Sequence record: KX452698
Reading direction: 5' to 3' (one strand)
From: Shigella phage KNP5
DNA length: 64,000 nt
Part shown: piece by piece, positions 60,721 through 64,000 of the stretch
Layout: each line of letters starts with the position of its first letter
Numbering within the stretch: the first letter of the stretch is position 1
The notes under the pieces: generated by a model
The model's database searches: none
The model's input: only the letters and a program-made list of their open reading frames with translations
What the model was told of the DNA's origin: nothing
Translations under genes and position numbers: made by a program

Positions 60721-60902
60721 AAGGAATTTATATAATTAATAAGTTCTTGTTCTTTATCGTCGAAATCTTTACACAGTTCTTCGTATTCATCGGTATTAAA
60801 AGGACCGCATTCATCACAAACTTTTTCCAATTCGCTATTTTTATCCATAACTTCGTGAATAAGAGAAAATAGTCTGTCTTTTTGTTCTTTGCTTAGGCTC
60901 AT
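60717..60902 (-). CDS. hypothetical small acidic protein (61 aa)
   Basis: ORF; ATGA overlap. Confidence 0.55.
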   Translation of the reverse strand: MSLSKEQKDRLFSLIHEVMDKNSELEKVCDECGPFNTDEYEELCKDFDDKEQELINYINSL

Positions 60903-61072
60903 ATATTAATTTCCAAAAGTTTTAAAATAATTCGCTTTTGCTTAAATATTTCCATAGTTAAATGATCAGTATCTTTTTGACCGATTCCAATGGCAAAACC
61001 TTTATTAACAGCGAGTTCAATTAAATTATCAAGTTCACGTAACACTTCATATTGTAGCTCAGAACTATTCAT
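60899..61072 (-). CDS. hypothetical small protein (57 aa)
   Basis: my own translation MNSSELQYEVLRELDNLIELAVNKGFAIGIGQKDTDHLTMEIFKQKRIILKLLEINI. Confidence 0.4.
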   Translation of the reverse strand: MNSSELQYEVLRELDNLIELAVNKGFAIGIGQKDTDHLTMEIFKQKRIILKLLEINI

Positions 61073-61275
61073 TTCGGTTTACCTTCTTTAACGAAATCAG
61101 GATAAGGATAAAATCCCGAATAAAATCCTTCACCTTTATGATTGATGCATCCTTTATTAGAACAATAGCACCAATAATCGAAATCACAAGCCATTTCATC
61201 ATTACATAAAGCAAAAACAACTGGCCATTCACACTTTTCGCAGTGTGCATTTTTAAGAATACTAGTTTGGCTCAT
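61069..61275 (-). CDS. small Cys-rich protein (68 aa, 8 Cys; probable zinc-binding)
   Basis: ATG 61275 (ATGA overlap); CEKCEW, CYCS and other Cys clusters. Confidence 0.5.
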   Translation of the reverse strand: MSQTSILKNAHCEKCEWPVVFALCNDEMACDFDYWCYCSNKGCINHKGEGFYSGFYPYPDFVKEGKPK

Positions 61276-61484
61276 AACCATGTAACCTTTAAGCAATATT
61301 CTTCTACGTGCTGTTTACGACCTTTCTTATCAATAAAGGTATATTCAACGAATGTTCCAATATAGTCTTTATTTACATCATGTGGACTATTAATTGGGCA
61401 TTTAGTACGGCAAATGCGTTCCCATTGACGAATAATTTCCACTCTGTTTTTAGGATCAAACGGATGCGGGTAATGTACTTTCAT
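61272..61484 (-). CDS. hypothetical protein (70 aa)
   Basis: ORF; overlaps the 3' end of the macro-domain gene by 29 nt. Confidence 0.45.
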   Translation of the reverse strand: MKVHYPHPFDPKNRVEIIRQWERICRTKCPINSPHDVNKDYIGTFVEYTFIDKKGRKQHVEEYCLKVTWL

Positions 61485-61935: not shown

Positions 61936-62279
61936 CTAGTACTCAATCCTCGATTATAAGAATCTACCAAACGGTCAACCATTGAATGACAAGCGGCTTT
62001 ATCTTTCTCCTCCGCAACTGAACATTCTAAGGTATTCCATTTTTTAGCATATCGTTTTAACAATGTATCATTTTTGTATCTGCTTGATTTATCTCTTTCT
62101 CCGTCTTTATATGCATATATTAATTTCTGTGCAAATTCAGCTTGGCATGCTTTATTTTTCCCGCAATAATCCGCGGCAGTACGATTTACATACTCTCTAA
62201 TTTCAGTATATGATGTATCTGCTGATGCAGAAGCAGAAAATGAAATTAATCCTATACATAAAACCAAAATTTTAGTCAT
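61932..62279 (-). CDS. secreted or periplasmic small Cys-containing protein (115 aa, signal peptide)
   Basis: MTKILVLCIGLISFSASASA signal peptide; 4 Cys in the mature part. Confidence 0.6.
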   Translation of the reverse strand: MTKILVLCIGLISFSASASADTSYTEIREYVNRTAADYCGKNKACQAEFAQKLIYAYKDGERDKSSRYKNDTLLKRYAKKWNTLECSVAEEKDKAACHSMVDRLVDSYNRGLSTR

Positions 62280-62817
62280 TTACTATTTCCAAAAGTTTAT
62301 TATTTTTAAGGTAATTAGCCTTTTCTAGGACTTCAGAAGCATATTTAGAACCTGCTTTAACATTCCATCCCGAATTATAAGAGGATATTGCTTTTCTTAT
62401 ATCGCCCTTATGTATATTTAACCAATAAGAAAGTTCAATGTACGCCCAGGAAGCTGAATTGGACCGTTTATTCAACATTCTTTTTATTTCAGCATCGGTC
62501 ATATTATAACCAAGTTCCTTAACTCTTGCTCGCATAGTTGGCAAATAATTTTGGAACATTCCATAGGCATGATGCTTTGGTTTAGATTTTAAATTAACTC
62601 CGGCAGAGCTTTCTTGCCACAAAATAGCAGCCATTATATGACCCAATCCGCTCTTGTGGATATTTTTGTGTGTTTTATATTTTCCATCCTTAGAAAATTG
62701 TTCCCCGAATTGATATGCGTAACGCATGTTATCGAGTTGGACATTACTGAAAGTATGCTCGGAGCTATGCGCCATCATTGAAATGGCCAATAGACCAGCG
62801 AGTAGTGCTTTTCTCAT
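62272..62817 (-). CDS. secreted lytic transglycosylase-like protein (SLT domain)
   Basis: signal peptide MRKALLAGLLAISMMAHS; SLT motifs ILWQESS, YGMFQ, SYNSG. Confidence 0.65.
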   Translation of the reverse strand: MRKALLAGLLAISMMAHSSEHTFSNVQLDNMRYAYQFGEQFSKDGKYKTHKNIHKSGLGHIMAAILWQESSAGVNLKSKPKHHAYGMFQNYLPTMRARVKELGYNMTDAEIKRMLNKRSNSASWAYIELSYWLNIHKGDIRKAISSYNSGWNVKAGSKYASEVLEKANYLKNNKLLEIVND

Positions 62818-62824
62818 GCTTACC

Positions 62825-63286
62825 TCATTGAGTTTTAATTACTGCTTTAGAAGCCTTTCCTGGTAAACGACGACTGTTGATAATTGCCATCCTGCATTGA
62901 AGCGACGGGTCTTTGAACTTCGCATTAGGTTTACAAACTGTAAATCCAAGCCAAAGATTTCCATCTGTGATTTCTAAACGTCCAGGACGGTATTCAACCC
63001 CATCAATAAAATCCTCGTCAATATCAGGACGCGGAGGCATACTCAGGAATTCATTAACTTCTAAAACATGGTCTTTTATTTTGTGGAATAATTCAAAAAC
63101 ATATGTCTCATCAATCTCTCGTTGAATTGCACGATCAAGAAGATGCTGAGAATATTTTAGATGAAACGATGAGACCCCTGCTGCTTTTGATGCCTCACGA
63201 ATCTCATTGTTAATTTGACGAAACTCCGACTCAAAGTGACGACGAAGCTTATTTCGACGGATAAAAACTTCTGTGTTGATAGTCAT
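62825..63286 (-). CDS. regB: endoribonuclease RegB
   Basis: 153-aa ORF MTINTEVFIRRNKLRRHFESEF...; size and sequence as T4 RegB. Confidence 0.88.
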   Translation of the reverse strand: MTINTEVFIRRNKLRRHFESEFRQINNEIREASKAAGVSSFHLKYSQHLLDRAIQREIDETYVFELFHKIKDHVLEVNEFLSMPPRPDIDEDFIDGVEYRPGRLEITDGNLWLGFTVCKPNAKFKDPSLQCRMAIINSRRLPGKASKAVIKTQ

Positions 63287-63345
63287 GTTATTCTCCTCTT
63301 AACTGATAGAGAAATTATACCACAGTCAAGAGGAAAAGTAAACAG

Positions 63346-63624
63346 TTATTCTTTAAATCTAATCAATTTATTCATAGACTTTGTAACTTCTGCACGAACC
63401 TCATGTAGGTTTTTAAGCTGTTCAAGACGCTGCTCATAGTAAGCAATTTCATCTTCTTCTAGACAGTCCTGTGAATCTTCTTTAAGATAACGCGCATAGT
63501 CCTGGAAAGCTTTACGGACTACTTCCTGGAAGTCATCAAGACTTTGAATTTTCTTAGGAGCAACAGATACACGACGAGGGGCAGTATAATACTCATAACC
63601 AAACCCTGCGCTTAATTGAGCCAT
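63346..63624 (-). CDS. hypothetical small acidic protein (93 aa; T4 vs.3/vs.4 position)
   Basis: ATG 63624 overlapping the upstream TAA; [20 protein letters not shown]... Confidence 0.55.
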
Positions 63625-63890
63625 TAATATTTTTCCTCTGGTTGGAACACAGCACGACAAGCCCACATACTGGCTTCTTTGAGTTTCGTTTTAGCAATAG
63701 TTAACTGATCGAGGCTTTCAGCATAATTCTTCGCGAATTCACAGTCTTCACAATTATCCAGTGCTTCCCAGAATTCATCGTATAAAGCGTCAAAGATAAG
63801 TCCTAAACGAACTTCAGCATCTTTGATAGCATTCACTTTACCGATTTTCTCTTCAGTATGTGGCTTATAACCTTTAATATCTTCAATCAT
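63624..63890 (-). CDS. hypothetical small acidic protein (88 aa; T4 vs.3/vs.4 position)
   Basis: ATG 63890 with GAGGAAG SD; [20 protein letters not shown]... Confidence 0.55.
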
Positions 63891-64000
63891 ATTTGACTTC
63901 CTCACCAGTACATAAATCATATTCAACTAAACGAATAGGTTCATGAATGCCATATCCTTGAACAGAAATTTCTGTCGTAGGATAAATTCCATCAATATCA
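63883..64000 (-). CDS. 3' end of a CDS continuing beyond the window
   Basis: open frame ending at TGA 63883..63885, ATGA-type overlap with the next gene. Confidence 0.4.
   Translation of the reverse strand, partial: DIDGIYPTTEISVQGYGIHEPIRLVEYDLCTGEEVKYD

Follow-up and report, generated by a model that had tools for sequence, protein, structure and literature searches.

At the end of the 64,000-nucleotide stretch of Shigella phage KNP5 DNA that we analysed (KX452698; hereafter the window), two small genes, vs.4 and vs.3, follow one another on the minus strand and are transcribed towards regB, which comes immediately after them (Table 1). The coordinates given in the original prediction are exact; it had described the two open reading frames as encoding small acidic proteins of 88 and 93 amino acids. 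The larger figure counts codons including the stop, and the protein itself has 92 residues; the acidic character is strong for the 88-aa Vs.4 (calculated pI 4.66, net charge -7.4) and mild for the 92-aa Vs.3 (pI 5.49, net charge -2.4). A GAGG(A) Shine-Dalgarno sequence lies ahead of each ATG start, and extended ORFs of 100 aa (TTG start) and 106 aa (GTG start) were rejected in favour of the ATG forms, which match T4 Vs.4 and Vs.3 end to end. These are real genes rather than chance ORFs, since the shorter product has the very sequence of a protein whose crystal structure is solved, and the surrounding 1.2 kb (62800..64000) recurs at 95% identity or more in 495 phage records. These records belong almost exclusively to Tequatrovirus phages of Escherichia, Shigella or Yersinia; in Escherichia phage KNP1 the stretch is 100% identical.

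Table 1. Features at and around the vs.4/vs.3 locus in window coordinates.
Feature	Coordinates	Strand	Remarks
vs.5 variant, 3' end	63883..64000	minus	Runs off the window; translation ...DIDGIYPTTEISVQGYGIHEPIRLVEYDLCTGEEVK matches a 73-aa ORF of phage ECp13
vs.4/acb2, 88 aa	63624..63890	minus	ATG...TAA; product ends ...FQPEEKY
TAATG junction	63622..63626	minus	vs.4 stop 63626..63624, vs.3 start 63624..63622; one shared base
vs.3/tadIV-1, 92 aa, long form	63346..63624	minus	ATG...TAA; product ends ...LIRFKE
Promoter-like site	63314..63342	minus	TTTACT-17-TGgTATAAT (extended -10); consensus match at 10/12 positions
regB, endoribonuclease	62825..63286	minus	Pfam PF10715 REGB_T4, 230 bits; positional anchor of the original prediction
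tk.4 homologue, 159 aa	61456..61935	minus	Macro domain PF01661, 32 bits
Small ORFs	within 60899..61484	minus	57 aa, no family; 75 aa, Phage_zn_bind PF23895, 100.8 bits; 70 aa, DUF7202 PF23832, 126.7 bits

The arrangement of the locus is that of T4. In the T4 reference genome (NC_000866), tk, tk.1-tk.4, vs, vs.1, regB, vs.3, vs.4 and the genes from vs.5 onward lie on one strand, with a gap of 59 nt between regB and vs.3 and an overlap of 1 nt between vs.3 and vs.4 at record base 63078. In the window, vs, vs.1 (which has a Pfam SLT match), regB, vs.3 and vs.4 likewise occupy a single strand in the same order and with the same spacing (59-nt gap, 1-nt overlap). The two ORFs had been assigned to vs.3 and vs.4 by position, on the supposition that the T4 gene order holds here; it does, and sequence identity to the T4 proteins bears out the assignment. 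The stop and start codons of the pair share one base in a TAATG junction, GAAAAATATTAATGGCTCAAT on the minus strand (i.e. ...AAA TAT TAATG GCT...), and the T4 genes overlap in the same manner. We infer that this overlap couples the translation of vs.4 and vs.3.

Upstream of the pair, the window departs from T4. The stop of a variant vs.5 and the vs.4 start share 8 nt (ATGATTGA), whereas vs.5 and vs.4 of T4 are separated by a 36-nt gap. The full-length gene of this variant, at L003:4584-4805, encodes a 73-aa protein whose first 18 residues are 89% identical to the 58-aa T4 Vs.5 and whose remainder is unrelated to it; a Pfam scan of the 73-aa protein returned no match. At some distance on the other side, the region between tk.2 and tk.4 holds three small ORFs where T4 has tk.3 alone. 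The neighbouring tk.4 is annotated as an 'A1pp phosphatase' in T4, and the presence of a macro-domain protein near two ADP-ribose/nucleotide-signal sponges might bear on counter-defence.

On the minus strand, 62700..64000 contains a single promoter-like match. It falls within the 59 nt that separate vs.3 from regB and, being downstream of both sponge genes, delimits the vs.3/vs.4 unit on that side. This consensus match would fit the early promoter of regB. The adjoining Shine-Dalgarno region of regB (63287..63302, minus strand) contains GGAG, the cleavage motif of RegB. Between vs.4 and base 64000 we found no promoter-like site on the minus strand, and Chen et al. used the vs.8 promoter to drive these genes (PMC13243611); the promoter that serves vs.4 and vs.3 therefore presumably lies past the end of the window. 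An Rfam scan of both strands of 62000..64000 returned no RNA element, its sole match, sR14, being at chance level (14.5 bits; gathering score 38). Plus-strand ORFs, and the plus-strand sites here that resemble promoters or terminators, were set aside, as they occur at the frequency expected from shuffles.

The identity of the 88-aa protein is established by comparison with T4 Vs.4, to which it is identical at 88 of 88 positions, as it is to chain A of the crystallised protein (PDB 7UQ2; 88/88, E 1.9e-57). The original prediction had singled out vs.4 as the anti-CBASS sponge Acb2 of T4 and had proposed a direct alignment as its check; with 100% identity, no protein-level difference separates the two, and genomic position, start, stop and overlap with vs.3 are also the same. 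Consistent with this, the protein scores 71.4 bits against the Pfam family PF24729, Acb2_Tad1_hairpin (gathering score 27), and matches PHROG 717 (E 2.3e-32), from which Jenson et al. drew their Vs.4 homologues (PMC10097602). The residues listed in that study for the cyclic-dinucleotide pocket (Y8, F82, H11, K23, R79 and S74) and for the hexamer interface (L29, F33, A66, A73 and A77) are all kept, as are those named in PMC10312549. Conserved Tyr and Lys nucleotide-binding residues, which the prediction had proposed as a check, are in place as Y8 and K23, aligned with Y11 and K26 of PaMx33 Acb2. Relatives of Vs.4 were found by tblastn in 1230 records, with Klebsiella, Enterobacter and Erwinia phages among them, and one of these records is already labelled 'Acb2-like anti-CBASS protein'. 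As judged by its sequence, the 88-aa ORF is Acb2, predicted to act as a cyclic-dinucleotide sponge that blunts CBASS.

Published work on the T4 protein provides the biochemistry. The Kd of Vs.4 for 3',3'-cGAMP is ~30 nM, and its hexamer accommodates three cGAMP molecules. Each ligand is held by stacking of Y8 and F82 on its bases and by polar contacts from Y8, H11, K23 and R79. The residues L29, A66, A73 and A77 are required for the hexamer, and a vs.4 knockout of T4 shows ~50-fold greater CBASS sensitivity in Cap2-mutant cells (PMC10097602). Huiting et al. 2023 (cited in PMC10312549) likewise deals with T4 Vs.4/Acb2. The T4 protein takes cyclic dinucleotides but not cA3 as ligands (PMC10312549). 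It also binds 2',3'-c-di-AMP, and it is both required and sufficient to set off Panoptes (PMC12657218). In the window protein, each of the three pockets of the hexamer would lie between two monomers and take up one 3',3'-cGAMP or other cyclic dinucleotide, which would thereby be kept from CBASS effectors such as CapV, and this same binding would be the activity sensed by the Panoptes system. The Acb2 of PaMx33 (p26; PDB 8H2J, 8IXZ) belongs to the same family and fold class, with weak similarity to the window protein (E 0.03), but also accommodates cyclic trinucleotides in a second pocket, which T4-type Acb2 does not; a D61R mutant of the T4-type protein showed no gain of cyclic-trinucleotide binding (PMC10312549).

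For the 92-aa protein, the original prediction was right about position and overlooked that Vs.3 itself has a known sponge function. T4 Vs.3 is TadIV-1, a sponge for N7-cADPR directed against type IV Thoeris (Chen et al., Nat Commun 2026; PMC13243611). In that study, vs.3 was the gene that let T6/T4 hybrid phages escape type IV Thoeris, its deletion sensitised T4, plasmid-borne vs.3 restored infection, and the protein was necessary and sufficient to block the system. TadIV-1 binds N7-cADPR with a KD of ~216 nM and frees it intact upon denaturation or proteolysis, with no detectable binding in vitro of 3'-cADPR (the type I Thoeris signal) or of the tested Yersinia CBASS signal (PMC13243611). 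The window protein aligns with T4 Vs.3 from residue 1 and is identical at 89 of 92 positions (97%), with the same length and the same place between regB and vs.4. It also matches the UPEC07 TadIV-1 structure (PDB 9WIW, E 5.9e-38) and PHROG 2037 (E 6e-40), a family listed as of 'unknown function'. A Pfam scan of Vs.3 found no family, and we take its one sub-threshold match, to Tex_N (19 bits, cut-off 32), as noise; the weak PDB matches (E ~0.06-0.07), a designed helical repeat and parvalbumin, were set aside as reflecting helical and acidic composition. Relatives were found by tblastn in 651 phage records, with 80% or more of the query covered in 611 of them.

The length of the protein bears directly on its function. 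The UPEC07 homologue is a dimer of two-helix protomers with a disordered stretch of 32 N-terminal residues, the removal of which abolishes activity; natural homologues of ~70 aa are inactive, and every long homologue tested, including that of T2, is active (PMC13243611). By the criterion of that study (>80 aa, with an N-terminal flexible loop), the window protein falls in the long group, though the loop of the UPEC07 protein is 9 residues longer. The weakest tblastn matches cover residues 25-92 only and represent the short form, in more distant phages. In T4, R17, R18 and K24 are required for N7-cADPR binding, and the ligand pocket is a model backed by mutagenesis rather than a ligand-bound structure (PMC13243611). 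All three of these mutationally implicated residues are kept in the window protein. By analogy, Vs.3 would form a homodimer of two-helix protomers in which the flexible N-terminal loop, carrying R17, R18 and K24, binds N7-cADPR together with helix alpha-1 of the partner; capture of this signal, which the type IV Thoeris TIR protein produces, would leave the caspase-like effector without activation.

The differences from T4 Vs.3 are limited to N38K, T64E and S81T. E64 is the residue found in the active UPEC07 protein in the 9WIW alignment, and position 81 corresponds to UPEC07 A90, part of an alternative predicted pocket (PMC13243611). One might suppose that these three substitutions render the allele ineffective against type IV Thoeris or shift its ligand specificity, or that low expression, as has been proposed for T2, has the same outcome. 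Ligand switching between homologues is known in sponge families, and T2 is sensitive to type IV Thoeris despite a functional TadIV-1 (PMC13243611), 95.7% identical to the window protein, so that presence of the gene is no guarantee of the phenotype. However, every residue implicated by mutation is kept, the change at position 64 is shared with an active protein, and the long forms tested were all active, including far more divergent ones (PMC13243611). The identical 92-aa sequence also occurs in other phages, e.g. F13076 and DCP2, which is consistent with a maintained allele. We regard loss or redirection of function as quite improbable; the three substitutions most probably leave it unchanged, and we consider that the 92-aa ORF encodes a working TadIV-1, although a small but real step separates resemblance to the tested protein from proof of activity in this phage.

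That the 92-aa protein might instead be an endoribonuclease or an accessory factor of RegB, as the molecule name of 9WIW ('Endoribonuclease'), labels of 'putative endoribonuclease' under the match in phages Phaginator and Kelasse, and the location of vs.3 directly upstream of regB could suggest, is scarcely credible, given that the publication of the 9WIW structure presents a two-helix dimer lacking any recognisable domain, which binds N7-cADPR and releases it intact, and reports no nuclease activity (PMC13243611), and that no nuclease family is among the Pfam matches of Vs.3. Most likely, the label was carried over from the annotation of the adjacent regB. In GenBank records OL615012 and MW749001, these labels appear as extra annotations under the Vs.3 match.

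We therefore read the region as a pair of neighbouring genes, from a T4-like (Tequatrovirus) phage, for the immune-signal sponges Acb2 and TadIV-1, with a probability of roughly 0.93. Identity or near-identity to the T4 proteins, the functional residues and the gene order come from the present analysis, and the biochemical mechanisms from the literature. Both small helical proteins would sequester, rather than degrade, nucleotide second messengers of bacterial abortive-infection systems, and the two unrelated proteins would divide the labour, Vs.4 taking cyclic dinucleotides of CBASS and Vs.3 taking N7-cADPR of type IV Thoeris. Tad1, Tad2, Acb4, sequestin and lockin are likewise small homo-oligomers that sequester an immune second messenger uncleaved. 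Their families are unrelated to Vs.3 and Vs.4, except for the hairpin domain common to Acb2 and Tad1 (PF24729), and TadIV-1 has been reported as structurally distinct from other sponges in its flexible-loop pocket and narrow specificity (PMC13243611). Both proteins and their mechanisms are already known from T4, and nothing at the locus departs from published T4 biology; local oddities are limited to the three conservative substitutions in Vs.3 and the variant vs.5.

A broader and rather doubtful proposal is that the side-by-side sponge genes, with their TAATG overlap, form a co-expressed 'sponge cassette', that the vs.5 variant with its replaced C-terminus and vs.6 to vs.8 might encode further, undescribed counter-defence proteins, and that the locus might be a T-even hot spot for the exchange of anti-defence genes.

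Both vs.3 and vs.4 are common and conserved among related phages, and hundreds of related records, in which both genes are mostly annotated as 'hypothetical protein', could be re-annotated as acb2 and tadIV-1. A phage that carries the two genes is predicted to be resistant to cyclic-dinucleotide CBASS and to type IV Thoeris, and, through its Acb2, is also a predicted target of Panoptes-type decoy systems that sense this protein.
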